DNA of 64,000 nt from a virus. A program made the translations under genes and the position numbers. Where the stretch lies: positions 1 through 64,000 of the IMG/VR virus record IMGVR_UViG_3300008050_000024, one strand, 5' to 3'. Shown piece by piece: positions 34,141 to 51,776 of the stretch. Under the pieces are notes generated by a model that had not been told where the DNA came from, did not search any database, and worked only from the letters and a program-made list of their open reading frames with translations. How positions within the stretch are numbered: position 1 is the first letter of the stretch; each line of letters begins with the position of its first letter.

Positions 34141-34703
34141 CACCTCCACCAAACGAAATGATACAGGCAAGGACCCAGGAACTGCTTCCTCAAATAGGTA
34201 TTCCCGAACGGTACCAACTGGCTAAATTAGATGATTTCCCACCAGAAGAAAGAAAAATGGTCAGGGCACTTATCGGACCCAAAATCAACACGATCATCGT
34301 CGGACCCAACAAAACAGGCAAAACACATCTCATGGCCGCTATTGCCCGGGAAAATAGCCATAATGCATTTCTCCCACATTTATCTAATTTCATTTCAATG
34401 TCTGACTTGATTCTAAATGTGCGGGAAGGCATCGGAGCGGAAGGCGAAAAAGCGTCCGATATCGTTCTAACTCGAAGATATATGGAATGTCCATATTTGT
34501 ACCTGGACGATCTGGGAGCAGAAAAGACAACAGACTGGGTGAGACAAGTGCTGTACACGATTATCAATTATCGATACAATCACATGAAACATATTCTCAT
34601 CACTTCGAACTTGATGCCTTCGGAATTAGACGATAAACTAGGAACTCGAATTTGTCGAAGAATTGAAGATATGTGTACTGTACACAGAAAGGACGAACGA
34701 TAG
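34137..34703 (+). CDS. DnaC/IstB-like helicase-loader ATPase
   Basis: GPNKTGKT, LYLDDLGAE, IINYRY, ITSNL. Confidence 0.9.
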   Translation: MTPPPNEMIQARTQELLPQIGIPERYQLAKLDDFPPEERKMVRALIGPKINTIIVGPNKTGKTHLMAAIARENSHNAFLPHLSNFISMSDLILNVREGIGAEGEKASDIVLTRRYMECPYLYLDDLGAEKTTDWVRQVLYTIINYRYNHMKHILITSNLMPSELDDKLGTRICRRIEDMCTVHRKDER

Positions 34704-34705
34704 AC

Positions 34706-36259
34706 ATGGAAGAAGTGGGTACACTGGAACGCCGGATAGTCATCGGCCTTGTGCTGAGCACAGACTATCTCCTGCACATACACCAGAAATATGATCCACT
34801 ATATCTCCAGTCTATGACGGCCCGCACAGTGTCCCATTGGTGCCTAGACTACTTCAAAACATATGAAAAGGCTCCAGGGGCTGAAATTGAGGCCCTGTAC
34901 GATGACTGGAAAATCCTAAATGAACAGGATGAGGACATAGTCAATATCACTAACTGGGTCTGCGACATCCTGGAAAATCTTGAAGAGACGGCCCAGGGAC
35001 TCAATGTCGATTATTTAATCACCCAGAGTTTAGACTACTTCAAAAAGAGGTCAATGGAAAACCTCAAGACCATGATGGAATATCACTTGGGACGAAACGA
35101 CCTGTTGCAAGTGGAACAGATGATCGCAGATTATCGAGGAGTCCAAGAAGAGTTGTGCTACGGCGTAACGCCCCTAGACGATGACCAACTAGTCATTGAC
35201 GCCTTTGACGAGAGCATGAAGCCCATGATTCAACTCCCTGGCGTGCTAGGAGATATGTACAATCGGTTCCTGATACAGGATTCGCTCATAGGTATTATGG
35301 CTCCGGAAAAAAGGGGCAAAACATGGTTTATGATGGAACTCCAAATGAGCGCCACTAAATCTAATCTGCCTGTAGCCGTTTTCCAGTGCGGGGATATGTC
35401 CGACAAGCAATGGACTCGTCGCCAAGGCATCCATTTATCTAAAAGAAACGACATGGGTGAGTTTTGTGGGAAATTGATGGTTCCGGTCATTGATTGTGTG
35501 TTCAACCAGAATGACACTTGTATCCGTCCCGAACGGGAACCCAAAACTGACCCCGGGGTGTTATTTCCAGAACTTGACAACGTCACACTAAAGAACATGA
35601 CCTTGGAAGAATACAAGACGGTCAAAGCGTGCAACCCCCATCACGTAGCCTGTACATCATGCCGCTATTCTCCTGATTCACAATTTAGAGGAGCCTTGTG
35701 GTACAAGCAACGGGAAAAGGTCCAGCCACTAACATCAAATAGTGCCCTTTACGAAACGCGAAGATTCCGTAAAATGTTTAAAGCGCCGTTCAAGTTATCT
35801 ACCCATCCAAGTGGGGATTTGAATATTAAGCAAATAAAAGACATTCTTCATGTATGGGAAGATTCGGAAGGTTTTGTGCCTAAGCTCATTTTAATTGATT
35901 ACGCCGATGTGCTTGGAGCAGAGGACTCCCGGAAGGAATTAAGGCATCAGCAAAATGAAACATGGCAGGCTATGAAAGGACTATCCCAAGTAGGCAAGAG
36001 CCTGGTCATTGCGGCGACACAAACGGATGCCGATAGTTATGACAGGGACAGCATTGGCTTGAAGAACTTCACAAACGATAAAAGGAAGTACAGTCATGTT
36101 TCTGCGATGTTTACGCTAAATCAGAACAAAGTAGAAAAAGCAAAAGGACTAATGCGTATAGGCAACTTGATTGCTCGGGAAAGCACAAGCGATGACCGAC
36201 AAGTCAAAGTGATACAACGGCTAGAAATGGGACGTTTCTATCTAGGGAGTTATTTATGA
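34706..36259 (+). CDS. dnaB: Replicative helicase (DnaB/gp41-like) with Cys-rich insertion
   Basis: APEKRGKT, LIDYAD, AATQT. Confidence 0.85.
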   Translation: MEEVGTLERRIVIGLVLSTDYLLHIHQKYDPLYLQSMTARTVSHWCLDYFKTYEKAPGAEIEALYDDWKILNEQDEDIVNITNWVCDILENLEETAQGLNVDYLITQSLDYFKKRSMENLKTMMEYHLGRNDLLQVEQMIADYRGVQEELCYGVTPLDDDQLVIDAFDESMKPMIQLPGVLGDMYNRFLIQDSLIGIMAPEKRGKTWFMMELQMSATKSNLPVAVFQCGDMSDKQWTRRQGIHLSKRNDMGEFCGKLMVPVIDCVFNQNDTCIRPEREPKTDPGVLFPELDNVTLKNMTLEEYKTVKACNPHHVACTSCRYSPDSQFRGALWYKQREKVQPLTSNSALYETRRFRKMFKAPFKLSTHPSGDLNIKQIKDILHVWEDSEGFVPKLILIDYADVLGAEDSRKELRHQQNETWQAMKGLSQVGKSLVIAATQTDADSYDRDSIGLKNFTNDKRKYSHVSAMFTLNQNKVEKAKGLMRIGNLIARESTSDDRQVKVIQRLEMGRFYLGSYL

Positions 36260-37474: not shown

Positions 37475-37551
37475 TTTGTCTATATAAGAGGACTTGGTGT
37501 TATAAATGAACCTTGAGAATAAAAAAATACAAACTTTTTTTAAAAAGGGTA

Positions 37552-37580
37552 TTGTGTCCGGTGACAAAAAGTCATATAAT
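37552..37580 (+). promoter_or_regulatory. Sigma70 promoter inside the modification cluster
   Basis: TTGTGT-17-TATAAT with A/T-rich upstream element. Confidence 0.7.
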
Positions 37581-37629
37581 CAAGGTGTACTTAACAAAAA
37601 CACTCAAGTCCAAATAGGAGGACACACTA

Positions 37630-38184
37630 ATGAAAATGGATCAAGTAACCAAAGCAGCAACGGAACTGAACACTGTACTTGGATGCAAGCCACCAATACC
37701 TACCGCCCCCGGAACCAAGAAGGCAGACATTTTGGTGAAGATCACCGAAGCAGCCACTTTAATTCAGGAAGGCGACAACGTCAGCAACGACACCAGAGCA
37801 GTGATTGCATTTGCGGCCAACCCAGAAGCGGCGGCCCCTCCTGCAGCACCAGCAGCTCCCGAAGGAACACCAGAAGGAACTCCTGCACCAGCTCCTACCA
37901 GCACTGCCAAAACTGTAAAGCAGTCCAAGCCAAAGTCGGAATACGGACACGCCCTGGGATCACTTTCCGGACAGATCGATGTTGCATTGATCGCCCATCG
38001 GGGAACTGTAACCAACTCGGCGGAAATTGCCAAAGTAGTAACTCAAGCGGCAGGCAAAGAATGTACGGCCAAGCGTATTATCGATCACGCCAAGAGCCTC
38101 AACACTCGCAAGCTCGCCGAAGTGGACATCCAGGTTGTGAACCCGGAAGAAGGAGAAAAGTATCACACAGTCAAACTTGCCTAG
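37630..38184 (+). CDS. Two-domain protein with Pro/Ala linker, possibly DNA-binding
   Basis: Strong RBS AGGAGG; own promoter and terminator; wHTH-like C-terminal half. Confidence 0.75.
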
Positions 38185-38761
38185 GCCAGTTGACGATAAA
38201 AACTCAAAGGCGGATCAGTTAAATCTGGTCCGCCTTTTTTTATCTCAAATTGGAGAGAACCCAAATCGTGATGGCCTACTCGAAACTCCATCACGTGTAG
38301 TCAAATTATGGAAGGACGTGTACGGCGGATATGATCAAGATCCGGCGGATATATTGAAACAGTTTGATAATGATGGAGACTATGATCAAATCGTACTTCT
38401 CCGGAATATCGAATTCTATTCAATGTGTGAACATCACATGCTTCCATTCGTAGGAACTGCGCATGTAGCGTATATTCCTAAGGACAAAATAGTAGGCATA
38501 TCTAAACTAGCTCGTCTGGTGGACATATATGCCCGTAGACTCCAAGTACAGGAGCGGCTAGGGCAACAAGTAGTCAACGCTCTAACTACTCATTTAGACG
38601 CTCTTGGAGCCGCTTGTATTATCGAAGCAGACCACTTTTGTATTCGTATGCGTGGCGTTGGTAAGCAGCACTCAAATATGGTCACTTCTTCCTTGGTCGG
38701 GGCGTTCAAAGATAACATCCAAACCCGACAAGAACTAATGTCACTCATAAAAGGAGTTTAG
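38177..38761 (+). CDS. folE: GTP cyclohydrolase I
   Basis: [48 protein letters not shown]. Confidence 0.97.
38206..38241 (+). terminator. Intrinsic terminator embedded in the folE 5' coding region
   Basis: AAAGGCGGATCAG-TTAAAT-CTGGTCCGCC followed by T7. Confidence 0.75.
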
Positions 38762-38762
38762 C

Positions 38763-39758
38763 GTGGAAACCGTAAAAGCAGAAATACTATGGACCCGGAA
38801 TTGCCATCTAGATTGTCAATATTGTGGAATGGTTACGGGAAGGCCCGCATCATACGGCGTTGAACGCTGGAAAGAAACGGTAGACAATCTGAAAAAGCTA
38901 GGATGTGGGTTTATGGCGTTTTATGGAGCTGAGCCTCTTTACGATCCCGATTTTGAAGAGCTTCCTGAAGTAGTAGGATATGCCGAATCACAGGGCATTC
39001 ATACCACGGTAATCACATCTGGTGTAGCCTCCAATGTCAAACAAAAAATAGACAGACTCATTGAAGCCGGTGCTCGTAGTTTGTCCATGAGTTACGACAT
39101 GGTTCCTCTGGACAAACACTCCAAAGCAAAAACAGGAAAAGCCCTGCAATGGCTGACATACTTCCGGGACAATTGTAAAGACTTGAGAGATGTCGCAGCT
39201 ATCGCTACCCTGACCAGTACGAACTTCCATCTGTTGCCTGAAACAATTGAAACAATGTCTTCAGAAGGTATCTGGATGTTTTTTGATATGATCCACCCAG
39301 ACCGAGGACAGCATGGCAGCAAAACCAGAAACCTGCCAGGGACAGAGGAACTGCTATTCAAACCAGAGCATCACAAAAACTTGAAACACATCCTGGACCT
39401 CACTATGGAGATGTCGGATGACGGCTACCTGGTGCACACATCCCGAGAATTTGTGGATTTGATTAGCGCTAACGACTTCGCCCACTTGCAAAACTATTCC
39501 TGGCATTGTACCAAAGAAAAGATGTTTCCGTCCTGGGTGACAATCGATTGTGATGGTAGGGTATTGACGTGCGATGATTACACGATCGAAACTCCCATTG
39601 TGTTTGGTCATGAGCTAGTTGAGAATTGGGATCGGTTCTGTGAAGAAGCCCGAAAGGATACACTCAAATGCCCTGGGTGCATTTGGAACACACACATTGA
39701 TGCGATGTACATTAAAGAGGGGTCAATTCCTTTTTCAAATTACGTCCATACCCTGTAA
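38763..39758 (+). CDS. Radical SAM enzyme with SPASM/twitch-like C-terminus, function unknown
   Basis: CHLDCQYC, YGAEP, C...IDCDGRVLTC...CPGC. Confidence 0.88.
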   Translation: METVKAEILWTRNCHLDCQYCGMVTGRPASYGVERWKETVDNLKKLGCGFMAFYGAEPLYDPDFEELPEVVGYAESQGIHTTVITSGVASNVKQKIDRLIEAGARSLSMSYDMVPLDKHSKAKTGKALQWLTYFRDNCKDLRDVAAIATLTSTNFHLLPETIETMSSEGIWMFFDMIHPDRGQHGSKTRNLPGTEELLFKPEHHKNLKHILDLTMEMSDDGYLVHTSREFVDLISANDFAHLQNYSWHCTKEKMFPSWVTIDCDGRVLTCDDYTIETPIVFGHELVENWDRFCEEARKDTLKCPGCIWNTHIDAMYIKEGSIPFSNYVHTL

Positions 39759-39769
39759 AGGAGAAAACA

Positions 39770-40573
39770 GTGCTATATGATAAACAGCGAATAGAATCTC
39801 TATTAGAAGCAGAGTGCTTTGAAATAGATTCGGATTTACGAGCTCATCCGAATAAGAAAATCGCTCTTTGCTATAGTGGTGGGATTGACAGTTTCACAGC
39901 ATTCCACTTCTTACGAGATCGGTACGGTGTTGAGCGTCTCCGTCTTGTTTGGTTTGATCTCAAATCTCGCTATAGTGAACGGGAGTGGGAATGGATTCAA
40001 CGACAGGATCTGCGTTCCAATATTTCCATACAAGTAGATCGCAGTTTAGACTTGAGTGATCGGGAAGTCGGAGAAAAGGCATACATACCTTTTCGCAATA
40101 TGTTAATTGCTGCCCAAGCTGTCAAATACGGGGACATCGTATGTATGGCGGGAGTCTTGGACGATGTTGTAGCCGATAAAAACAAGCCCATTTTTGAAGA
40201 AATGTCGCATGTGCTCAGTATGATGGAAAAACGGCCCCTTCGGGTTTGGAGTCCGTTTTGGGGATTAAGGAAGCACGAAGTCGTTGCCTGGTTCCTAAAC
40301 AACACGGAACATCCCAGAAACATTCTTGATACTATTTCCTGCTATTCCGGGCATTGCGACAGTAACTACTGCGGAGAGTGTCCCTGCTGTTTTCGAAAGT
40401 GGGTTGCTTTGCGGGCCAATGATGTGATCATAGATTTTATAAATATGAAATTATTGGAAGAATACTATACACTGTGTCGTGACGGACATTACGATACAGA
40501 GAGGAATAGAAGCACTATTGAAGTTATCGATGAATATCGGCGTGAACTAAAGTTCCGAAAGGAAAGTGAATAA
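39770..40573 (+). CDS. queC: 7-cyano-7-deazaguanine synthase
   Basis: PP-loop YSGGIDS, YIPFRN, SCY...CGECPCC. Confidence 0.9.
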   Translation: MLYDKQRIESLLEAECFEIDSDLRAHPNKKIALCYSGGIDSFTAFHFLRDRYGVERLRLVWFDLKSRYSEREWEWIQRQDLRSNISIQVDRSLDLSDREVGEKAYIPFRNMLIAAQAVKYGDIVCMAGVLDDVVADKNKPIFEEMSHVLSMMEKRPLRVWSPFWGLRKHEVVAWFLNNTEHPRNILDTISCYSGHCDSNYCGECPCCFRKWVALRANDVIIDFINMKLLEEYYTLCRDGHYDTERNRSTIEVIDEYRRELKFRKESE

Positions 40574-40889
40574 CATGAGAATCGCAGTTGACATTGACGG
40601 TGTCTTGACTTTGGAAACGGAAGGTCATGACTATACAAACCGAACACCGAATAAAGAAAACATCGAAAAAGTAAATGAACTAGATGCGGCAGGACACACT
40701 ATCATTCTGCACACAGCAAGATGGGAACAGGACCGTGGGGTTACCAAGGCGTGGTTAGATGCTCACGGTCTTGTTGCTTGTGAATTGCTCATGGGCAAAG
40801 TGCTTTGTGATCTGTACATTGACGACAAAGCATCCACAACCATCCCGACGCCGCATGATCTCTATATGGCCCAGGAGGTATTCTCATGA
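40566..40889 (+). CDS. Small capless HAD phosphatase (EcbF/BcbF-like)
   Basis: DIDGVL, HTAR, GK, YIDDKA. Confidence 0.85.
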   Translation: MNNMRIAVDIDGVLTLETEGHDYTNRTPNKENIEKVNELDAAGHTIILHTARWEQDRGVTKAWLDAHGLVACELLMGKVLCDLYIDDKASTTIPTPHDLYMAQEVFS

Positions 40890-41962
40890 TTGTATGGTTT
40901 GCCGGCACGGTAGGGAACAGAATTGAAGTTGAAAACTTTTGCAAATATCGCTTGCATTCGTATCACAGCATCCAAGATGGCGCAGCTACTCGCAATGTCA
41001 TGCAAAACGAGGAACGGACGTACACTCTGTTCCTAGATAGTGGTGCTTTTTCCGCTTGGAACCTAGGCAAACCCATCCAAGTCCAAGACTATATCGATTA
41101 CGTCAAAAATAACTTGTCTAAAATCGATTATTATGTGGTACTGGACGTAATTACCCAAGTCCAAGCTTCGTGGGAAAATCAGTGCGCTATGGAGGCCCAG
41201 GGACTTAAACCCCTTCCAGTCTACCATACGGAAGATCCGTTTCCATACTTGGATCGCTGTTTACACTATGATTATTTCTGTTTAGGCGGGATGGCAAAAG
41301 GGTTTACGACAAAACAGCGTCGGGACTTTTTAGATGCCTGCTGGGAAAGAATGACAGACGCCGACGGGGCGCCTCTCACCAAGGTACACGGACTGGGAAT
41401 GACATCCATCGACTTAATGATGCGTTATCCCTGGTACTCGGTTGACAGCACGTCTTGGCTATTAGCCAGTGCCATGGGAAATATCCTACTCCCCCGGTTG
41501 ACCGAGTCCGGACCTGTATTTGATCAAAAGCCGTTGGTGCTGTCATCCTCCTCTCGGTCGCCTCAACAGGGTGATGACACAAAACACATACTAGCTATGA
41601 AAGGAAAAGAACGGGATCGTGTCTTTGGGTACTTGGCAGAATTGGGCGTCCCCTTGGGTGTATCGGAATTTGTCAAGTATGAAGGACAGGAGATTTTAGA
41701 AGGACAAAAGAAATGCAAAGACGGGAAGGGACAGGAGATTTTAGAAACCATCAAGGAAGAGGGTGTAGCAAACAGTCGATACAGTCGATTTATCGTCAAT
41801 GCGACATTCTTCAAACGATTAGCAGCTGGGTTGGGCAACTGGCGGGAACGTAGATTTGAACAAAAAAGAAAAGCCAAAAAAGGGTTCTTTTCAAAGAACG
41901 TATTTGTACAGCCTCCAGTAAAACGAGCGAAAGGAAAAGTGGATCATGATAAAAACAAATAG
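40886..41962 (+). CDS. dpdA: DNA 7-deazaguanine transglycosylase (TGT-like)
   Basis: LFLDSGAFS, PVYH, LGGMA, VHGLG, PWYSVDSTSW; clustered with que genes. Confidence 0.88.
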   Translation: MIVWFAGTVGNRIEVENFCKYRLHSYHSIQDGAATRNVMQNEERTYTLFLDSGAFSAWNLGKPIQVQDYIDYVKNNLSKIDYYVVLDVITQVQASWENQCAMEAQGLKPLPVYHTEDPFPYLDRCLHYDYFCLGGMAKGFTTKQRRDFLDACWERMTDADGAPLTKVHGLGMTSIDLMMRYPWYSVDSTSWLLASAMGNILLPRLTESGPVFDQKPLVLSSSSRSPQQGDDTKHILAMKGKERDRVFGYLAELGVPLGVSEFVKYEGQEILEGQKKCKDGKGQEILETIKEEGVANSRYSRFIVNATFFKRLAAGLGNWRERRFEQKRKAKKGFFSKNVFVQPPVKRAKGKVDHDKNK

Positions 41963-42989
41963 GGAATACCTTTTAGACCTGCTCCGGCTATTGAAGCCGG
42001 GATTGTCTGAAAAGGATTTAGTAGAGGAATTCGGCGCATTGCGCATTTGTCAAGGCACACTCGTCACCTACAACGACAAAATATCCGTCCAAGTACCTGC
42101 GCCACCCGGCTTAGAGGCACTTAACGGCATTGCAGTGAGGGTTCAGCCCCTTTATGAAATCCTATCAAAAATGGATGATACCGATATTGCATTATTGGCA
42201 GGAGAAGACAACCTTGAAATACGAGGAGCCCGAAACAAAGCCGAGCTTAAACTTCAAATCGTACAGGAAGAAATTCCCATTTGGAACGACATCGCCGCCC
42301 TAGAACAGCACGGAGGCTGGAGTGAGTTTCCCAAAGAATGCATTGACGCTATTCAAATGTGTCTATTCTGTTGTTCTAAAAACATGATGGACGGTGTGTT
42401 GACGTGCCTACACTTTACAGATTCAATGGTTGAGGGTTGTGATAACTATCGACTAGTCCGATATGCCTGGCCCGTACCGCTGCCCTCCTTTGGCGGACAC
42501 ATTATGATCCCGGGAGGTGCACTGTCCACATTGAGCCAGTATCCCATTTCAGAGATTGGATTGACCGATGCCTGGATACACTTCAGAACAGAGCAGGGCG
42601 TGGTGTATTCATGTCGTACGTTTGCCGGCGAATACCCAGACACGGCTGGGTTTCTTGAGGTAACAGGAGACGCAATTAAACTCCCTTCACAGATCACAGA
42701 TGTGATGGAGCGTGCCGCTGTGTTTTGCGACGACAAGTTTGAAGACGAGCAACTTGTAGATATTGAATTACAGGGCCAGGGCAAGGTTTTGATCTCCTCC
42801 AAAGGATCCGACGGCTCATTCATGGAACAGCGGGTTCTTCGGTACGCAGGTCCGCCCAGGAAGTTCCAAGTGCATCCTGAATTTATCTCGGGAGTAATGT
42901 CAATCACGGATGACGCCATTATCGGCGAGGCTAGCCTCAAACTGGAAAAGGGCCCACTAGTTCATGTCGTACTATTGAGTGACGAGTAG
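41946..42989 (+). CDS. dnaN: Sliding clamp (Pol III beta-like)
   Basis: ~350 aa; GCDNYRL and FAGEYPD motifs; position before the polymerase. Confidence 0.75.
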   Translation: MIKTNREYLLDLLRLLKPGLSEKDLVEEFGALRICQGTLVTYNDKISVQVPAPPGLEALNGIAVRVQPLYEILSKMDDTDIALLAGEDNLEIRGARNKAELKLQIVQEEIPIWNDIAALEQHGGWSEFPKECIDAIQMCLFCCSKNMMDGVLTCLHFTDSMVEGCDNYRLVRYAWPVPLPSFGGHIMIPGGALSTLSQYPISEIGLTDAWIHFRTEQGVVYSCRTFAGEYPDTAGFLEVTGDAIKLPSQITDVMERAAVFCDDKFEDEQLVDIELQGQGKVLISSKGSDGSFMEQRVLRYAGPPRKFQVHPEFISGVMSITDDAIIGEASLKLEKGPLVHVVLLSDE

Positions 42990-42998
42990 AAAGAGCTT

Positions 42999-45725
42999 AT
43001 GAAATCTTTTTTTAGTAAGTCAGATCCCCTTTTAAAGCAAAAGGGATATTCGGGGAGTTGCCATACTTGCCGGCTGTATCTAACTTGCCAGAGCCCTAAA
43101 ATGGTAGCATCTGGGATGGGTAATCGTAGAATCCTTCTAATAGGTGAAGCGCCAGGAGAAGCAGAAGACGCCAGAGGGGAAGCAATGGTTGGGCCCTCTG
43201 GTCAGTTCCTGGAACAGACACTCCGGGCTAATGGTATTCTAATGTATGAGGACTGCTGGAAAACCTACGCACTCCAATGCCGTCCTCCTAAAGGAAAGCA
43301 GATAACCGATGAGAGTTTATCTGCTTGTAGGACTCGAGTCATAAAAGAAATAGAAACACTCAAACCCCATCTAATCATTTTGCTAGGAAAAACGCCTTTG
43401 TCCAACGTGCTGTTAGAAGAGTTAGATTCCGAGTTTACTGGAGCCATTGCCTCTTGGCGAGGTAGAGTGATTCCCTTTTATAAGTGGAATTGCTGGGTGG
43501 CTGTGGTATCTAATCCGGCATTCGTCCTAAAATCAGACACTAAGAAGGATTGCAATGCGCTACTTTTTAAGCAAGATATAGCAAAGAGCATCCAATACAT
43601 AAATAAACCCCTTCCGGCGCCTATAGAGGAGCGTAGACACGTGCTCGGAACTCGGGAGGCTGTGGCCTTCTTGTCTAAATTGATCGTACGACCACCTGGA
43701 AACCGTGTCGCATACGATTATGAAGGAACAGGACTAAAGCCTCACGCAAAGGGACATGGCATTGTCTGTGTAGGATTAGCCGTAAATGAATCAGACGTGT
43801 ACTCATTTCTTCTACCCCACATTGATCCTAAATGGACTGATGCTGAAATGCAGGAACATCTCCAACCTGAAGAGTTTCAGCTTATCTGTCTTTGGCGGCG
43901 ATTCCTAGCAAGTGAACTGGTAAAGAAAACAGCACATCATTTGAAATTTGAACACAGCTGGTCTAAAGAGATCTACGGAACTGAGGTGAGGGGGTGGGAG
44001 TGGTGTTCAATGGAAGCTGCTCACATCTTGGACAATACGGAAGGAACAAACGGATTGAAATTCCTTGTGTTTGTTGAGTTTGGCATCACGGACTATAACG
44101 CCGATGTGTCGCAATACTTAAAATCCAGCAAAAAGGAAGAAAAGAGAGTAGGCAAAAACGCCATAAACCGAATCCATCAGTGTAGCAAGCAACTGCTACT
44201 CGAATACGTAGGTGGCGATGCCTTGTACCAATGGCATCTAGGAGAACGACAAAGACAGCAGATGGAAACGCATAAGTTTCGATATCCTCCTAATGTTCTC
44301 ACAATACATGACGCATACGACTTGTTTCACGAAGGTGCTATTGTCCTGGCCGAGATTGAAGCCCACGGAGTAGCCATTGATACAAAGTATTCGACGCAGA
44401 CCATGCAGGAACTCAATGGCCAGATTGAGGGGATCAAAAACGACCTAAAGGAAACCGAGGTGTACAAAGCATGGTATCAAAAATACGGATTCAATACCAA
44501 TGTAGAATCCGGGGCCCAGCTAGCCGATGTGCTCTATAACATCCTGGGTCTTACTCCCACCAAAATGTCTGAAAGTGGAGAACAGGGGTCAACAGACCAC
44601 GAAGCCGTAGCCGGTCTCATCGGAACCGTACAAGGAATTGAAGAAATAGCCCGCATAGGCAAATTAAGGAAAATATCAAGCACATACCTAGGCGGATACT
44701 TGAGGGAAAGCGTTGACGGTATCATACACCCCTTCTTTCATTTGCACATTCCCAGGACATTCCGATCCTGTAGCCGTAACCCTAACTTTCAAAACGTCCC
44801 GAAACGGGACTATGAGAGTATGTCAATCACACGTCGATCCATTATACCCCGCCCTGGACACGTTCTTGTCGAGATTGACTTCTCAAATATCGAAGTTCGC
44901 ATCAGCGCCTGCTATCACAATGACAAGCAGATGATCATCTACATCAAAGATCCCACTACGGACATGCACAGAGACCAAGCCATTGAAGTATTCAAAATGC
45001 AGCCTTCTTGGTGGCACGGATTAACTAAGCCCCAAGAGAAGAAAATGAAGCCTATCCGACATACAGCAAAGAACAAATTTGTATTCCCTCAATTTTACGG
45101 AGACTACTTTGTTAGTTGCGCCCAGGCTATGTGGCAGGAAGCCGCTGAACATACGCTTTTCAATGATGTTCCACTACTTGAACACATGAGATCTCAAGGC
45201 ATTGGTACCTTAGAATCCTTCACTCAGCACATGAAAGAGGTCGAACACAGGTTTTGGCATGAACGCTTCCCAGAGTACACAGCTTGGAAGGAACAGTGGT
45301 ATAAGGATTACATTGCCCGGGGTTGGTTTATAATGAAAACCGGGTTCAAATCAGAAGGGCTGTTTACCAGAAATGAAGTAATCAATCACCCTGTACAAGG
45401 ACCAGCATTTCATTGCCTTTTATGGAGTGTCATTCAAATGCACAAGGAATTAAAAGCCCAAAACAGCCAGTCACGTATTTGTGCACAGATTCACGATTCC
45501 ATGTTTTTAGATGCAGACCCGGATGATTTAGACTTTATTTTCGAGAAATCTACAGAGATAATGACACAGCGGTTGGTAGACGAATGGAAGTGGATCACAG
45601 TCCCATTGGCGATAGAACACGATGTCAGCAGGGTAGACGGGACTTGGCAAGAACAGACGACATTACCGTGGGATAAGTTAAAGAACAGACAAGAGGATAT
45701 CCGTACGTTTTTAGCGAGTATATAG
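42999..45725 (+). CDS. polA: Family A DNA polymerase with N-terminal family-4 UDG-like domain and 3'-5' exonuclease
   Basis: GEAPG/CRPP; DYEGTG; NPNFQNVP; motif A DFSNIEVR, motif B RHTAKNKFVFPQFYG, motif C QIHDS. Confidence 0.96.
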   Translation: MKSFFSKSDPLLKQKGYSGSCHTCRLYLTCQSPKMVASGMGNRRILLIGEAPGEAEDARGEAMVGPSGQFLEQTLRANGILMYEDCWKTYALQCRPPKGKQITDESLSACRTRVIKEIETLKPHLIILLGKTPLSNVLLEELDSEFTGAIASWRGRVIPFYKWNCWVAVVSNPAFVLKSDTKKDCNALLFKQDIAKSIQYINKPLPAPIEERRHVLGTREAVAFLSKLIVRPPGNRVAYDYEGTGLKPHAKGHGIVCVGLAVNESDVYSFLLPHIDPKWTDAEMQEHLQPEEFQLICLWRRFLASELVKKTAHHLKFEHSWSKEIYGTEVRGWEWCSMEAAHILDNTEGTNGLKFLVFVEFGITDYNADVSQYLKSSKKEEKRVGKNAINRIHQCSKQLLLEYVGGDALYQWHLGERQRQQMETHKFRYPPNVLTIHDAYDLFHEGAIVLAEIEAHGVAIDTKYSTQTMQELNGQIEGIKNDLKETEVYKAWYQKYGFNTNVESGAQLADVLYNILGLTPTKMSESGEQGSTDHEAVAGLIGTVQGIEEIARIGKLRKISSTYLGGYLRESVDGIIHPFFHLHIPRTFRSCSRNPNFQNVPKRDYESMSITRRSIIPRPGHVLVEIDFSNIEVRISACYHNDKQMIIYIKDPTTDMHRDQAIEVFKMQPSWWHGLTKPQEKKMKPIRHTAKNKFVFPQFYGDYFVSCAQAMWQEAAEHTLFNDVPLLEHMRSQGIGTLESFTQHMKEVEHRFWHERFPEYTAWKEQWYKDYIARGWFIMKTGFKSEGLFTRNEVINHPVQGPAFHCLLWSVIQMHKELKAQNSQSRICAQIHDSMFLDADPDDLDFIFEKSTEIMTQRLVDEWKWITVPLAIEHDVSRVDGTWQEQTTLPWDKLKNRQEDIRTFLASI

Positions 45726-45815
45726 ATTTAGTTGTTTATATAAGTCTTTACTTCGTATATAAAAGTATGTTATACTCTATTATTCGTATGAGAGTTTTTA
45801 AGGAGGTTTGTATAG

Positions 45816-46172
45816 ATGGAGCGAACAATGCCTATCTCAGGAACTAACTCCTGTTCCGATAACGCACCACCAAAGATGACCCGGACATCGTTTCCTGGTC
45901 ATACGGTTACAAAGGGCTACTATCGAATGTTCGTGGATAATCGTACCATGAAGAATATAGTAGGCGGCATGAGGACTGTGTTCATTCACAGAAAAAGAAA
46001 ATGGGTCAGGATTTACGACCCGTTCACTTCTTCAGGATCTGCCCAACTATCTAAAGGCATGTTTGACACGATGACGGTAGAGCTCCTGACGCCAAAGCAA
46101 CAGGCGTATGCGCAAAAGAAAGACAGGAGATTACGTGGGTTTATACCAGAAGCATCGTCCCTCGACCTTTGA
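45816..46172 (+). CDS. Hypothetical protein
   Basis: RBS AAGGAGG; promoter-like TATACT upstream. Confidence 0.6.
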   Translation: MERTMPISGTNSCSDNAPPKMTRTSFPGHTVTKGYYRMFVDNRTMKNIVGGMRTVFIHRKRKWVRIYDPFTSSGSAQLSKGMFDTMTVELLTPKQQAYAQKKDRRLRGFIPEASSLDL

Positions 46173-47064
46173 CGGGGTCATAGGGAACAAGGAAGTAGTA
46201 GCGTCGCTTAAGACAATCTTAGCTAGGCCTAAAGAGCACATTCCAAAGGCCTTTCTTTTATCAGGACCTAGTGGCTGTGGCAAAACTACGATTGCCCGCA
46301 TTATACGGGACGTGCTAGGCTGTGCCATTTTTGATTTTAAGGAAGTTGATACCGCAGACATGCGAGGTATTGACATGGTGCGGGAACTCAACCGTATCGC
46401 TCATTACAAGACCACAGGAGGTTCCTGCCGGGTTATCCTTTTGGACGAATGCCACAAGATGACCAACGATGCCCAGAACGCCTTACTCAAGTTGCTGGAA
46501 GATCCTCCACCCAATGTCTTTTTCATACTGGCCACAACAGATCCCCAGAAACTAATCAAAACAATCATTACTCGTTGCACGTCCTTTGAACTGAAACCCC
46601 TACCCCAAAATGAGTTATGCTTACTACTGATGAAAGTAGCCCGTGCCGAGGGCAAACTCATAAAGCCGACGTCACTCCAAAAGATAACCGAAGGAGCCAA
46701 CGGCAGTCCTCGAGGCGCTCTCCAGATTCTAGAAAAAGTAATAGACTACCCCATTGATCAACTAGAAGAATTGATTACCAATATGGAGAGTTTTGATGCA
46801 CGTGGTATCGATTTAGCACGTGCCTTAATAAAACGGGCGCACTGGAGTGAGATCCTCAAGATTTTAGCCGGTCTAACCGAGCCAGAAGAGTCCATTAGAC
46901 GCTGTATCTTAGGATATAGCACGACTGTATTATCAAACCCCAAGACGTCAACAGCAGATCAAGCTCGGGCATACGTATTGTTGACCTGTTTCGAACGCCC
47001 GTACTACGATACAGGAAGAGCGGGGCTTATCATGTCCTGCTATGAAGCAAAGGCAACCAAATGA
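46108..47064 (+). CDS. dnaX: Clamp loader AAA+ ATPase (Pol III gamma/tau-like)
   Basis: LYQKHRP.TF, GPSGCGKTT, LDECH, NALLKLLEDPP, TRC. Confidence 0.93.
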   Translation: MRKRKTGDYVGLYQKHRPSTFDGVIGNKEVVASLKTILARPKEHIPKAFLLSGPSGCGKTTIARIIRDVLGCAIFDFKEVDTADMRGIDMVRELNRIAHYKTTGGSCRVILLDECHKMTNDAQNALLKLLEDPPPNVFFILATTDPQKLIKTIITRCTSFELKPLPQNELCLLLMKVARAEGKLIKPTSLQKITEGANGSPRGALQILEKVIDYPIDQLEELITNMESFDARGIDLARALIKRAHWSEILKILAGLTEPEESIRRCILGYSTTVLSNPKTSTADQARAYVLLTCFERPYYDTGRAGLIMSCYEAKATK

Positions 47065-47615
47065 CAACAGTTATAATTGAATCAGAAGAAGATTTCAAAC
47101 ATCGCATACGGCTTAATATGGGTGAGCTTGAGGAATTGTTTTTTGAGCATCCCGCAATCGTAGCCGAATATGGCGAACTTGCTGCGAAAGCTGAGCGTGC
47201 CTACAATCTCGCTCACGAAACAGCACGGGAAACCCTTTTTGGTATTATGAACGATGCTAGAAAGAGTCCCACAGACTATGGGATCGTGTCGGCCCGTTCA
47301 GCTCCTCCCGAAGGCGCTATAGAGAGCACGGCACGGTCCGAACAAAGTGTAATTGACGCCCGCAGGGCAGAAGTAGAGGCACAGTCCATTTGGAATATAA
47401 CCAAAGGACGAATGCAAGCTCTACACCACAGGAAAAAAATCATAGAGTCACTTGTAAACCTAACGCACATGGGGTTTTTTGCTGCTCCTAAAGATGCGCC
47501 TGGGGCACGATTGACTCCAACTAAGGAAAAGTCACAAGCTATCAATGAATCAGTGGACGCCGCAATCCGGCGATCACGCAATTTACCACATCCATTGGAG
47601 GGAACACATGAATAG
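47061..47615 (+). CDS. Helical protein, possibly UvsY-like recombination mediator
   Basis: Coiled-coil character and position before SSB and RecA. Confidence 0.45.
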   Translation: MTTVIIESEEDFKHRIRLNMGELEELFFEHPAIVAEYGELAAKAERAYNLAHETARETLFGIMNDARKSPTDYGIVSARSAPPEGAIESTARSEQSVIDARRAEVEAQSIWNITKGRMQALHHRKKIIESLVNLTHMGFFAAPKDAPGARLTPTKEKSQAINESVDAAIRRSRNLPHPLEGTHE

Positions 47616-49221
47616 ATCGGAACGAGCACAGGCACAGAGGGACAGGATCAAACAAGATGCTGTTGCCTCTCAATCAAAAGGAGCGGATTACTTAGGAAAT
47701 TCCAAGTTTCCTATAAAGACGCTCAACCTCAAAACAGGCACCCATTTTTTGGATTTCATGCCCTATGATGTTACTATGGAGGGATCTCCTCACAAGGTAA
47801 TACCGGGCGACATTTGGTACAGGAGGAGTATCCTACTTCACCGAAACATCGGTTCAGAAAACATCAAACTGGTTTGTCCCAAAACCTTTGGGAAAGATAA
47901 ACCCTGCCCCATTTGTGCCCATCGTAACTATCTACAAGGGCTCGGAGATCCTTCCATGGACGCTCTTATCAGCTCGATTAAGCACCATGAACGTACTTTG
48001 TTTAATGTGGTGGATCTTAATAATTCGTCCGTGGGTACTCAAATACTGGATGCCGGGGATTTCCTGTTTACTAACTTAATGATGAAGGAAGTTAATGAGA
48101 ATGATGATTTCCTCTACTTCACTGAGTTGGAGGGTGGGTATCAAGTCAAAATCCGAATGGATGAGAGTAGTTTCCAGGGACGCAGTTTTCCAAAGGCTGG
48201 TCGATTCGATTTCATACCCAGGGATTACACGTACCCAGAAGCCGCTATGCAGGCTGTTCATGATTTGGATGCCATCATCATCGTGCAACCCTATGAAGAA
48301 ATCAAAGAGTTGTTTTTTGAAGGAGAAGAGCCTCCTGTTGCTGGGGCAACCACTGTTTCTGTTCCTGGTGCCGTAGCCGGCGCAGCTCCCGCTGCTAATT
48401 CTGTTGCGAGTTTTATGCCAGCCGGTGCTGTTCCTTCAGGGACTGCTCCAGGTGCTGCCGCTGTTAGTCCTCCAGCTTTAGCCACAACGCAACCCGCCGC
48501 TCCTCCCGCATCAGTACCAGCGGCGCAACAAGCCGCACCGGGACCAGTAGCTCAACAAGCAGTACCGGCGCCAGCAGCTCAACAGGCCGCCGCTCCTGCG
48601 CCGGCTACTCCTGGAGTAATAACAAGAGACCCCATGCCAGAACAAAAGGCGAATGAGGCTCCCACGCAAACAGCTCCTCTAGCCACGGCACCTCAACGCA
48701 CAAACCCTCCCGGGACTGTAGCTGCTCAAGCCCCTCCCGCTGCTCCTCCTGCTGGGATACAGAGAAGTGCCCCTGCCGGAGCGGCAATCACTCAACCTAC
48801 CGAAATACCAACTCCCCCAAAAAAGGCGCCTCCTGGTCCTACCGGATATGAGCCTTGTATTGCCTGCCAAGAAACAGGCGTACCCTCAAATGGAATTGGT
48901 GACTGTTTCCCTTGCAAAGGATTTGGTTGGTTGACTGTGCAGGCCCCCCCTGCACAGCAACCACCCGCCCAGCCTCCTGCGGTTTCCCCTCAAGCTGTTG
49001 CACCCCCAGCAGCGACTCCCCCGCAGGAGGCTCCAGTAAATCAAGTTCCCGCCCCAGCAGCACAAGTGCCCGTGCAACAACAGGCCGCTACTCCGGGAGG
49101 AACGTGTCCAGATCCCGCTGGTACCTTTGGTGTTTCTACAAACGACATTCCCGCCTGTACAGCCTGCCCCTTATGGGAAGCTTGTGCGGATCGTAAGTTC
49201 GGAGACACCGTCCCATTCTAG
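47608..49221 (+). CDS. gp32-like ssDNA-binding protein with long Pro/Ala tail and Zn modules
   Basis: LDFMPY, HRNIG, VCPKTFG..CPIC; ATG 47608 after GGAGG. Confidence 0.8.
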   Translation: MNRSERAQAQRDRIKQDAVASQSKGADYLGNSKFPIKTLNLKTGTHFLDFMPYDVTMEGSPHKVIPGDIWYRRSILLHRNIGSENIKLVCPKTFGKDKPCPICAHRNYLQGLGDPSMDALISSIKHHERTLFNVVDLNNSSVGTQILDAGDFLFTNLMMKEVNENDDFLYFTELEGGYQVKIRMDESSFQGRSFPKAGRFDFIPRDYTYPEAAMQAVHDLDAIIIVQPYEEIKELFFEGEEPPVAGATTVSVPGAVAGAAPAANSVASFMPAGAVPSGTAPGAAAVSPPALATTQPAAPPASVPAAQQAAPGPVAQQAVPAPAAQQAAAPAPATPGVITRDPMPEQKANEAPTQTAPLATAPQRTNPPGTVAAQAPPAAPPAGIQRSAPAGAAITQPTEIPTPPKKAPPGPTGYEPCIACQETGVPSNGIGDCFPCKGFGWLTVQAPPAQQPPAQPPAVSPQAVAPPAATPPQEAPVNQVPAPAAQVPVQQQAATPGGTCPDPAGTFGVSTNDIPACTACPLWEACADRKFGDTVPF

Positions 49222-49256
49222 ATTGCAAAGGGATTGGAACGGAAAGGAAAATAGTT

Positions 49257-49670
49257 GTGAATGAGTTAGATGAAAACCTATTAGAAGACCCGCCAACAAA
49301 GAAGAGTTCCAAGTATTTTGCTGCTTGGACTAAGCCGGAGATTGTGGATCGTTTGGATTTAGCATGGGCAAGTACAGGCGCTCGTAGCCGGGCCCATTGC
49401 TTGAAAGCACTGGTTAATGATTTTATTAACCAAGCCAGTAATTCTGAGGATCGATGCATTACACGGATGGCGGAGGAAATGGCGAACGTCTGGCTAACTC
49501 GCACGTTTCAATCCCTCCCCGGTTTTTTAGACGAAGTGCGTCTAAAGTACACAAAGATGAAACTACCAACAAAGTACATTGAACAGGTATGTGAAAAGAT
49601 AAAGGTTATAATCAATGAAAAGAACGAACACGCCCGACGAGCAAACTTCGGAACCCCCGAAAATAAGTAG
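49257..49670 (+). CDS. Putative ribbon-helix-helix regulator
   Basis: FAAW..PEIVDRLD...SRAHCLKALV pattern. Confidence 0.45.
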   Translation: MNELDENLLEDPPTKKSSKYFAAWTKPEIVDRLDLAWASTGARSRAHCLKALVNDFINQASNSEDRCITRMAEEMANVWLTRTFQSLPGFLDEVRLKYTKMKLPTKYIEQVCEKIKVIINEKNEHARRANFGTPENK

Positions 49671-50877
49671 AACGCCGATAGCAGCAGGACCGCCTGTTGC
49701 TGCTGTTCCAGCCCTTGTTCAGGATGTTGCGCCGGTTATGCAAAGAATCCCCGGGACTGTACCAGCCGCTGCTCCCGTCCAAAGAGAAGCCCCTGGCGCA
49801 TCGATGTGCGGAGCAGTTCTTCCTGACAACTATATCGTATTTCCTACAGGATCATCACTTCTTAATACATACATGGCCCGTGATACGGGTTTGGGAGGAT
49901 TTGCCTCTGGAACGATTTCGAACGTGGTAGGAGATTCTGGTGGAGGCAAAACATTGCTGGCATTATCGTGTTTTGCCGAAATGGCTAAAAACCCGAAATT
50001 CAATGATTATCGATTTATCTTCGATGACGCTGAGCACGCCCTTGCCTTCGATTTAGAAACCATGTTTGGAGCAGAAGTAGCTCGGCGCATAGAACCTCCT
50101 AGAGAACCCAGAGATGCCAATGATAACGGCAGTTCGGCTACTGTTGAAGAATGGATGGATAACATGCATGCTGCAGGGGCGGACGGTCGTCCTTTCTTTT
50201 ACGTGTTAGATTCTTTAGATGCATTGCCGAGCGAAGACGAGCTTGATCAGATTGAAGACGAAAGAAAAGCAAGGCAAGGCGGTAAAGAAACTTCTGGGTC
50301 ATACGGTACGGCTAAGGCTAAGCGAGTAGGACAGGCCATACGTACGAGCTTAAAGCTAACAGACAACACAAGTTCCCATATAATGATTCTCTCGCAGACT
50401 AGGGATAAAATTGGAGGATACGGGGGTAAGGGACGCAGTGGCGGGAAGGGTTTACAGTTCTTCTCCTCCCATGTCCTCTGGGTGTCCATTAAAGCGTCAA
50501 TAAAACGCACTGTCAATAAAATGGAATTTGAGGTAGGGCGCACGATTGAAGTGCTTTTAGACAAGAACAAAACAGGGGGCATTCGCCGTAAATTCCTAGT
50601 CAATATTTTAGACCACTACGGAATTGACGATTTGCTTAGTATGTTGCAATACCTGGAAGCATGTGGTTGCATAGGACACGAAATAGACCCAAAGACTAAA
50701 AAGCCAAAGAAAAGCAGTCTACACTTTGAGGAACTGGGTTTAACCGGTGTTCCCGATACCATCATAAAAAGAATAGAAGAAAATGGATGGGAGTCTCGGG
50801 TTCAATCGATTCTAGTTCGTTGGGTAGCCAAAGTTGAAAAAAGTGTGTTAAAAGGAAGGAAGCCCCGGTACGCATGA
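49615..50877 (+). CDS. recA: RecA/UvsX-like recombinase
   Basis: PTGS, GDSGGGKT, DAEHA, VLDSLDAL, SQTRDKIG, SGGKGLQF. Confidence 0.92.
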   Translation: MKRTNTPDEQTSEPPKISRTPIAAGPPVAAVPALVQDVAPVMQRIPGTVPAAAPVQREAPGASMCGAVLPDNYIVFPTGSSLLNTYMARDTGLGGFASGTISNVVGDSGGGKTLLALSCFAEMAKNPKFNDYRFIFDDAEHALAFDLETMFGAEVARRIEPPREPRDANDNGSSATVEEWMDNMHAAGADGRPFFYVLDSLDALPSEDELDQIEDERKARQGGKETSGSYGTAKAKRVGQAIRTSLKLTDNTSSHIMILSQTRDKIGGYGGKGRSGGKGLQFFSSHVLWVSIKASIKRTVNKMEFEVGRTIEVLLDKNKTGGIRRKFLVNILDHYGIDDLLSMLQYLEACGCIGHEIDPKTKKPKKSSLHFEELGLTGVPDTIIKRIEENGWESRVQSILVRWVAKVEKSVLKGRKPRYA

Positions 50878-51776
50878 TTTTGTTCGTTGATTGTAGTAAT
50901 CTCTGCCACGCCGCCGCACACACGACGGGTGATCTAGAATTGGAAGGAAAAAAAGTAGGGGTCATATTCGGATTCTTACAGAAGTTCCTATCCATTCTAA
51001 GGGAACGCCCGCAACCACCCTCCGCAATCGTGTTTACTTGGGATACTAGACGTCATGAGAATTACAGGAGGCGCATATATCCCAAGTATAAGGCCCAGAG
51101 ACAGGCAGAACCGGGCAAAGAGATTGATTATGATCAATTTACCCAGTTGCGTACTGAAGTTCTTCCCAATATGGGATTTGCTAATCAGTGGCACCAAAAA
51201 GGATATGAAGCCGATGACTTAATGGCTCAGGGCGTCCTATGCTATCCACAGGAACATCATACCATAATTTCTACTGATACAGACTTGTACCAACTACTTC
51301 GACCGAGCGTAGATATCATCAAACCAAAAACCCGTTTGAAGTTTACGTTGAAAGATTTTGAAGAACTGTTCGGAACAACGGATATGTCCCTGTTTATACA
51401 GGCAAAAAGCCTTGCCGGAGACAATTCAGACAACATCACAGGAATTGACGGTATCGGCGTACCCACCGCTATGAAATTTCTAACAGGGAAACTATTCAAA
51501 GGCAAAAAATACGATGCTTTGGTGGATCCACAATACACACATCAAACATCCTTAAATTCACGTTTAATCTGTTTGCCCTACAAACAAGCAGAAGATCCAA
51601 TCAAGATTCCGCACATCCAAGGAGATCCCATAGATTGGCCCACTATTTCTGCAGTATTAAAATCATTCAAATTTGAACGAATACTGATGCAAAACAGAGG
51701 GCATTACGCTGGAAAAACCGTAGATGAAAAAATGAGAAGAGTAGGAATAGCAAGGAAAGGATTTTTTAATGACTAG
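50874..51776 (+). CDS. 5'-3' exonuclease / flap endonuclease (T4 RNase H-like)
   Basis: VDCSN, YPKYKAQR, YEADD, STDTDLYQL, GDNSDNITGIDGIG. Confidence 0.93.
   Translation: MILFVDCSNLCHAAAHTTGDLELEGKKVGVIFGFLQKFLSILRERPQPPSAIVFTWDTRRHENYRRRIYPKYKAQRQAEPGKEIDYDQFTQLRTEVLPNMGFANQWHQKGYEADDLMAQGVLCYPQEHHTIISTDTDLYQLLRPSVDIIKPKTRLKFTLKDFEELFGTTDMSLFIQAKSLAGDNSDNITGIDGIGVPTAMKFLTGKLFKGKKYDALVDPQYTHQTSLNSRLICLPYKQAEDPIKIPHIQGDPIDWPTISAVLKSFKFERILMQNRGHYAGKTVDEKMRRVGIARKGFFND

Follow-up and report, generated by a model that had tools for sequence, protein, structure and literature searches.

A candidate sliding-clamp-binding peptide on the DNA 7-deazaguanine transglycosylase DpdA of an uncultured phage

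Clamp-binding peptides and DpdA in described systems

Bacterial DNA enzymes dock on the beta sliding clamp by short peptides, either a pentapeptide (QL[SD]LF) or a hexapeptide (QLxLxL). The carriers include Pol III alpha and delta, Pol I, II, IV and V, Hda (at its N-terminus), MutS, MutL and ligase. Here, we analyse a 64-kb stretch of DNA, hereafter the window, which is the first part of the 103.9-kb, 94% complete IMG/VR virus record IMGVR_UViG_3300008050_000024. Its dpdA gene codes for a DNA 7-deazaguanine transglycosylase, DpdA, whose C-terminal tail holds a short motif ending in GFF. The DNA polymerase and the 5'-3' exonuclease or flap endonuclease (FEN) of the same genome share this motif. 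Comparing relatives and predicted structures, we give a probability of about 0.65 that the peptide, a basic linker followed by G-[FL]-F, serves to bind the beta-type sliding clamp which the phage itself encodes, as a clamp-binding motif placed on a DNA-modifying enzyme. What we observe is the motif, its conservation, its place on a tail predicted to be disordered, the clamp gene that goes with it and the homology of this clamp to DnaN; that the two bind, and any influence on how fast or where modification occurs, we infer.

The likeness to the bacterial motifs lies in a short peptide with two hydrophobic or aromatic end residues, placed on flexible termini of many DNA enzymes and facing a DnaN-type cleft. 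The tails of cultured relatives even read Q-x-L-F or Q-D-L-F. The differences are that Lys/Arg-Gly (KGFF) replaces Gln here, the phage itself encodes the clamp, a base-exchange enzyme is the putative client, and the binding is a prediction.

In eukaryotes, DNMT1 binds PCNA by a PIP box. That system offers the likeness of a DNA-modifying enzyme tethered to a clamp, with the marks laid just behind the fork. It differs in that the enzyme is a methyltransferase whose PIP box contacts PCNA, and there is no homology. The gp45 clamp of phages T4 and RB69 is likewise a phage clamp, and proteins other than the polymerase use it as a platform by way of a terminal peptide that is copied among them (the C-terminal tails of gp43, gp33 and gp55); it is a trimeric PCNA-like clamp, however, and its motif is another one. 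The T4 alpha-glucosyltransferase (alpha-GT), a DNA-modifying enzyme like DpdA, was proposed to ride gp45. This link is disputed, and a 2025 preprint reports that alpha-GT and beta-GT do not bind gp45. The MuC protein of phage Mu is reported to depend on a clamp-binding motif in late transcription (PMC12867686). MuC is similar as a phage protein outside the replisome recruited by such a motif, and different as a transcription factor that uses the host clamp.

The window DpdA resembles the DpdA1-DpdA4 subfamilies, being a TGT-like DNA transglycosylase encoded beside preQ0 synthesis genes (PMC6884629, PMC10516641). Base exchange on DNA is established for the relatives 9g and CAjan (PMC6884629, PMC7544227), and the modification is held to be post-replicative (PMC6884629, PMC10516641). 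Between <0.1% and 100% of G is modified, and certain DpdAs show no activity when they are the only protein expressed (PMC10516641). The DpdA literature searchable here, including PMC6884629 and PMC10516641, makes no mention of a C-terminal tail or of a clamp link. A clamp tether would bear on how a phage DpdA finds its substrate, on the range of modification levels and on the inactivity of lone DpdAs. If the reading is true, base exchange would be replication-coupled, as DNMT1-PCNA is for methylation, and a base-exchange enzyme would join the list of clamp clients. The idea is directly testable because the tail and the dpdA-clamp gene pair are present in the cultured E. coli phages CAjan and JenK1.

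A short motif on DpdA, the polymerase and FEN

The genes and motifs that carry the argument are listed below.

40886..41962, + strand: dpdA, DpdA, DNA 7-deazaguanine transglycosylase, 358 aa (phrog_887, E 6.7e-54)
41876..41896, + strand: DpdA tail motif KKGFFSK, aa 331-337, candidate clamp-binding motif
41946..42989, + strand: sliding clamp, beta-type (DnaN-like), 347 aa (phrog_947)
42999..45725, + strand: PolA, UDG-fused family A DNA polymerase, 908 aa (PF00476, E 9.8e-41; PF03167, E 1.5e-17)
42999..43019, + strand: PolA N-terminal motif MKSFFSK, preceding the UDG Cys cluster
50874..51776, + strand: 5'-3' exonuclease / FEN, 300 aa (PF02739, E 3.5e-22; 5_3_exonuc_N)
51753..51773, + strand: FEN motif RKGFFND, at the C-terminal end of the 5'-3' exonuclease

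The clamp gene thus sits between dpdA and polA, and its start overlaps the 3' end of dpdA by 17 nt, within the region of the last 21 DpdA codons. A first-pass annotation of the letters alone had named four strings, KKGFFSK, MKSFFSK, RKGFFND and MGFF, as one shared signal. All four are found exactly where it had placed them, and Pfam and PHROGs matches bear out its naming of DpdA, the clamp, PolA, the clamp loader and the exonuclease. DpdA, PolA and FEN of one genome are several carriers of one motif. Taken by itself, the window makes a modest case. Six-frame translation of the 64 kb yields 10 matches to the pattern [KR][GS]FF. In the selected open reading frames (ORFs) of the window [GSA]FF occurs only 7 times; 4 of these are within the replication module, of which 2 are exactly terminal. 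That two copies stand at the very terminus of replication proteins is suggestive without being decisive. The comparative data that follow indicate that the sharing of the motif goes far beyond chance.

Close relatives were found neither among cultured phages by blastn nor in IMG/VR by clamp peptide patterns. A metagenomic protein set gave 2030 DpdA homologues (best identity 44%), and aligning DpdA we gathered 80 related IMG/VR loci, labelled L004, L005 and so on. The FLDSGAFS block is invariant in the family, and the TGT-like similarity was also seen by tblastn to annotated phage DpdAs, including that of CAjan. A clamp homologue lies within 10 kb of dpdA in 70 of the 80 loci. The conserved gene order is FolE, then radical S-adenosylmethionine (SAM) protein and QueC, DpdA, small ORFs, clamp, polymerase, loader, UvsY-like, single-stranded DNA-binding protein (SSB), UvsX and FEN.

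The DpdA C-termini in this set share one layout: a conserved WPWAF-like block, then a variable Lys/Arg-rich linker, then the motif at the end. A clamp-binding motif as first proposed ought to be conserved among DpdA orthologues, and we find the candidate motif on 171 of the 194 unique tails from homologues and loci together. A strict C-terminal pattern was matched by 46/81 DpdAs against 19/1364 other ORFs. The tail ends come in two forms, [FLMI][FL] (KGFF, KGLF, GFF, GLF, SLF, RFF) and [FL]-x-[FLI] (GFGL, GFSL, GFDL, GLGL), which mirror the penta- and hexapeptide classes of the bacterial motif. Performing AlphaFold2 modelling of the window DpdA (mean predicted local distance difference test score, pLDDT, of 86), we obtained a folded core to about residue 320 with the last helix at 298-316. 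The Lys-rich tail with KGFF came out as coil, with pLDDT 51 dropping to 39. The tail beyond the last helix is therefore predicted to be disordered, and by alignment and model it bears a conserved short linear motif.

The polymerases carry the peptide at the other end. Allowing for miscalled starts, M-x(0-5)-[FL]F opens 57 of the 65 unique related polymerases against 64 of the 949 other ORFs, and the narrower M.{0,3}G[FL]F opens 35/65 against 3/949. The strict N-terminal pattern was matched by 32/110 PolA pieces and 7/1364 other ORFs. A typical start in relatives is M-x-GFF-[ST]-K-K-E. In most relatives PolA comes as two halves, one of ~410 aa (UDG/exonuclease) and one of ~465 aa (polymerase), and in some cases further ORFs are inserted (split PolA for example at L004:3396-4649 and L004:4838-6232); the window PolA is a single protein of 908 aa. 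For FEN, a separate search was made, as the 80 loci hold only 7 FENs with unclear ends. Most of the 62 homologues end in W-K-x-x-[IVLF]-F-x(1-4), with ends such as HIFKE, LFFKG, SFFGGN and IFND, and the FFND end in the window fits this family feature. The claim of a shared motif thus holds for DpdA and the polymerase and, less sharply, for FEN; it fails for MGFF, the fourth string, which is probably a different signal. The latter is found in this gene:

47061-47615, + strand: UvsY-like ORF (the family profile matches T4 UvsY, 4zws, E 1.7e-5)
47469..47480, + strand: MGFF in the UvsY-like ORF, aa 137-140, internal and not terminal

We rejected MGFF as a copy of the motif: in an alignment of 31 members of the UvsY-like family, it falls on a conserved [QS]YFAGP inside the protein. 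The ORF itself lies between the clamp loader and SSB. PHROGs lists its family as of unknown function, and by the profile match we take it to be a UvsY-like recombination mediator.

We also rejected as evidence the KGFF of DnaE-type (family C) polymerases, seen in six relatives and considered as an internal clamp motif. It aligns to a structural GGYF segment near residue 859 of E. coli DnaE, not to QADMF at 920; only in L005 is a GLFF aligned to QADMF. These DnaE-type (PHP, Pol III alpha) enzymes replace PolA in some relatives (L005:8378-11653, L076:15286-18702, L027:12350-15118). Two of the three tested bear a C-terminal UDG domain, a family C-UDG fusion parallel to the UDG-PolA of the window.

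The phage clamp as candidate partner

Performing tblastn with DpdA, and adding annotated regions, we collected cultured phages with dpdA. The gene is followed by a clamp gene in eight of them: CAjan, JenK1, NP1, pVco-14, Rhizobium phage RHEph04, Synechococcus phage Yong-L2-223, Streptococcus phage MS1 and Bacillus phage Flasso. All eight DpdAs end in ..LF (QELF, QDLFDE, QELF, QGLF, QRLF, PVLF, NRLF and GKLF), and Gln is present in the tails QELF, QDLF, QRLF and QGLF. A polymerase start of the type ..GLFW/GFFW was read in five of the eight, including M..ALGLFW (NP1, pVco-14), ..IGFFW (JenK1) and ..NVGLFW (the Synechococcus phage). These polymerases are of family B in the Queuovirinae (four, including NP1, pVco-14 and JenK1) and of family A in the Synechococcus phage.

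Five further cultured phages do not have dpdA beside a clamp gene, and four of them (Typha, Eeyore, Mufasa8 and phiSM) have no tail. In the fifth, Acinetobacter phage AB3P2, no clamp is detectable, but the DpdA does end in QQCLF. The first-pass annotation had proposed comparing phages with and without the clamp. The tail is found in 8/8 phages with an adjacent clamp gene and in 1/5 without (Fisher p = 0.007, uncorrected for phylogeny). In five tail-bearing cultured phages the clamp profile matches 5/5, the loader family PF13177 1/5 and gp32-like SSB 0/5. The DpdA tail persists with a polymerase of family A, B or C, including uncultured relatives with the UDG-fused DnaE-type enzyme. Because the loader, SSB and polymerase family vary while the tail persists, the clamp is the only constant partner. 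Read from sequences, these comparisons support that the tail goes with a neighbouring beta-clamp gene in phages of very different kinds, irrespective of polymerase family and with or without a loader found.

A ParB-like gene was observed next to or near dpdA in the tail-less phages Mycobacterium phage Typha (L089), Arthrobacter phage Mufasa8 (L092) and Cellulophaga phage phiSM (L093). It may be a different way to bring DpdA to DNA.

A profile of 58 phage clamps matches >50 DnaN structures (best E 1.4e-18, positions ~45-313 of 334), by which the phage clamp is homologous to bacterial DnaN. The peptide cleft of E. coli beta, between domains II and III, is lined by L155, T172, R176, L177, P242, V247, Y323 and V360. 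Aligned to these at about 20% identity, the putative cleft of the window clamp has L152, R169, L170, P231, F236, F313 and V341. Among the 58 phage clamps, the aligned columns are conserved in kind, with L in 51/58, S/T/C in 51/58, R in 49/58, P in 47/58 and F/L in 50/58.

The same data bear on which clamp is addressed. The peptide might dock on the host beta clamp, either in addition to that of the phage or as its main target, so that DpdA, the polymerase and FEN are recruited to host-type clamps. The tails QDLF, QELF and QRLF of cultured relatives are near the bacterial consensus, the clamp-less AB3P2 has its QQCLF end, and the 9g DpdA is active in uninfected E. coli. However, the tail tracks the phage-encoded clamp gene (8/8 with, 1/5 without), the uncultured clade has a Gln-less basic-GFF form common to its own polymerase, and the phage clamp retains the putative cleft residues. 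We consider docking on the host clamp unlikely.

Another hub of the replisome could also be bound, be it the polymerase, clamp loader, SSB or helicase. The loader and helicase are found here:

46108..47064, + strand: clamp loader ATPase (PF13177, E 1.5e-25; phrog_5846, E 1e-60)
34673-36259, + strand: DnaB-like helicase (phrog_19)
36230..36256, + strand: helicase C-terminus GRFYLGSYL, with the family-conserved end GRPFLGSF[FWY] seen in the C-termini of 51 relatives

All these genes are neighbours in the window, and the helicase likewise ends in GS[FY][FWYL]. Nevertheless, the loader family was found in one and gp32-like SSB in none of the five tail-bearing cultured phages searched, the polymerase changes family (A, B, C) under a persisting DpdA tail, and the polymerase carries the peptide itself. 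Such a hub is, in our judgement, a very unlikely partner.

A third explanation denies any shared function: the DpdA tail would be family-specific (for folding, oligomerisation or as a degradation tag), with no relation to the ends of the polymerase and FEN. The motif is indeed just 3-4 residues long, the KGFF of the DnaE-type enzymes corresponds by homology to a structural GG[PY]F segment, and MGFF is a structural family motif. The tail is, however, disordered and stands behind a variable linker, the peptide recurs at the N-terminus of non-homologous polymerases, and DpdAs unlinked to a clamp lack it. A lack of shared function is, in our judgement, highly improbable.

Several observations weigh against binding to the phage clamp. 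The leading Gln of the canonical beta-clamp motif is absent in the window, where the three carriers read K-K-G-F-F, M-K-S-F-F and R-K-G-F-F. The window DpdA does not have its motif at the extreme C-terminus, 21 residues remaining after KKGFFSK. FF and LF co-vary only weakly between the DpdA tail and the polymerase start (Fisher p = 0.10). The FEN motif comes right after a conserved segment with a Trp, and part of its role could be structural. Among the cultured phages, phiSM has a clamp gene but a tail-less DpdA, and the clamp-linked DpdAs are one subfamily, which makes the association phylogenetically non-independent. Finally, the DpdA of phage 9g modifies plasmid DNA in E. coli without a phage clamp (PMC6884629), so the clamp is unnecessary for catalysis. 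The product there was 0.3% of G as dPreQ0 for DpdA alone and 9-18% as dG+ with Gat-QueC (PMC6884629). JenK1 shares the genus Nonagvirus with 9g, and the DpdA of JenK1 has the tail QDLFDE.

The complex prediction proposed along with the first idea belongs here as well. The only complex folded, the clamp with DpdA residues 305-358, lends weak support, with an ipSAE of 0.60 (runs 0.58-0.63) against 0.00 for the best of 3 controls. It passes a mark that 58 of 80 solved complexes also pass, along with 2 of 110 mismatched pairs. Only 7 of the 80 solved complexes, however, score 0.60 or lower, as do both mismatches that passed. The runs agree in at least 50% of contacts, with a partner pLDDT of at least 46. 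The pass may reflect likeness, because clamp-peptide complexes have already been solved.

If the peptide does bind the phage clamp, the following course can be proposed. DpdA would be tethered through its tail peptide to clamps on replicating or just-replicated phage DNA. The polymerase would present the peptide at its N-terminus, FEN at its C-terminus and DpdA on its disordered C-terminal tail, and DpdA would share the clamp cleft with the polymerase and FEN or compete with them for it. Close behind the fork, guanine would be exchanged for the 7-deazaguanine base made by FolE/QueD/QueE/QueC. The first-pass annotation had the phage clamp recruit DpdA and confine modification to phage DNA. The recruitment is favoured by the conserved motif, the disordered tail, the likeness to known motifs and the clamp-gene association, and less so by the complex fold; strict restriction to phage DNA is unsupported because the 9g DpdA modifies plasmids in E. 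coli. On a wider and rather doubtful view, phage clamps would be a platform to which DNA-hypermodification enzymes at large are recruited (DpdA and, in relatives, tailoring methyltransferases and others), with a phage-specific basic-GFF peptide replacing the host QLxLF. Such a "modification replisome" would mark DNA while it is copied, and the orthogonal pair would bias modification to phage over host DNA.

Neighbouring genes and other terminal peptides

Directly upstream of dpdA, the window holds genes for QueD (PF01242), a QueE-like radical SAM protein, FolE (PF01227, E 6.5e-70), a second radical SAM protein and QueC (PF06508). FolE and QueC flank the second radical SAM protein (38763-39758, 331 aa), and before dpdA comes a 107-aa ORF without a family match (40566-40889). 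The base inserted by the window DpdA may be other than plain preQ0. The replication module of the window also holds gp32-like SSB and UvsX/RecA genes.

In relatives, a family of class I SAM methyltransferases adjoins FolE, and 5/5 close members have a similar tail, ending in KGFGF, KGFDL, KRLL, YKLL or KGLSV.

L062:8353-9249, L075:8031-8894, L044:6221-7129, L065:8280-9275, L069:8567-9433: SAM methyltransferases beside FolE

These methyltransferases may tailor the deazaguanine base while tethered to the clamp. In relatives, an end of this kind was also seen on a CN-hydrolase, on a PAPS-reductase-like protein (N-terminal MKGFFPS) and on a C5 DNA methyltransferase (MINPFF). The helicase end GRPFLGSF[FWY] may likewise serve in docking, or it may be part of the structure; the latter is suggested because a conserved LQxL..GRP block precedes it.

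Two overlapping open frames were found at 37506-38222 and 37630-38184. The longer one begins MNLENKKIQTFFKKG, an N-terminal TFF behind basic residues, followed by an odd Ser/Arg/Gln-rich composition. The 184-aa frame (37630-38184) looks like the real protein of the pair. The rest of the genome (64-104 kb, unannotated) lies mostly on the opposite strand and looks structural; no convincing terminal motif was found in it.

A second terminal peptide was observed, an acidic stretch followed by [VIL]PF, which resembles the bacterial SSB tip DDDIPF. The gp32-like SSB of the window ends in GDTVPF (49201-49218). In relatives, N-terminal halves of the split PolA end in ..LPF, and several clamp loaders end in ..DVPF, ..EIPF or ..NVPF.

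L004:3396-4649, L007:3095-4336, L033:18183-19127, L043:15058-15999, L075:17404-19512: proteins with [VIL]PF ends in relatives

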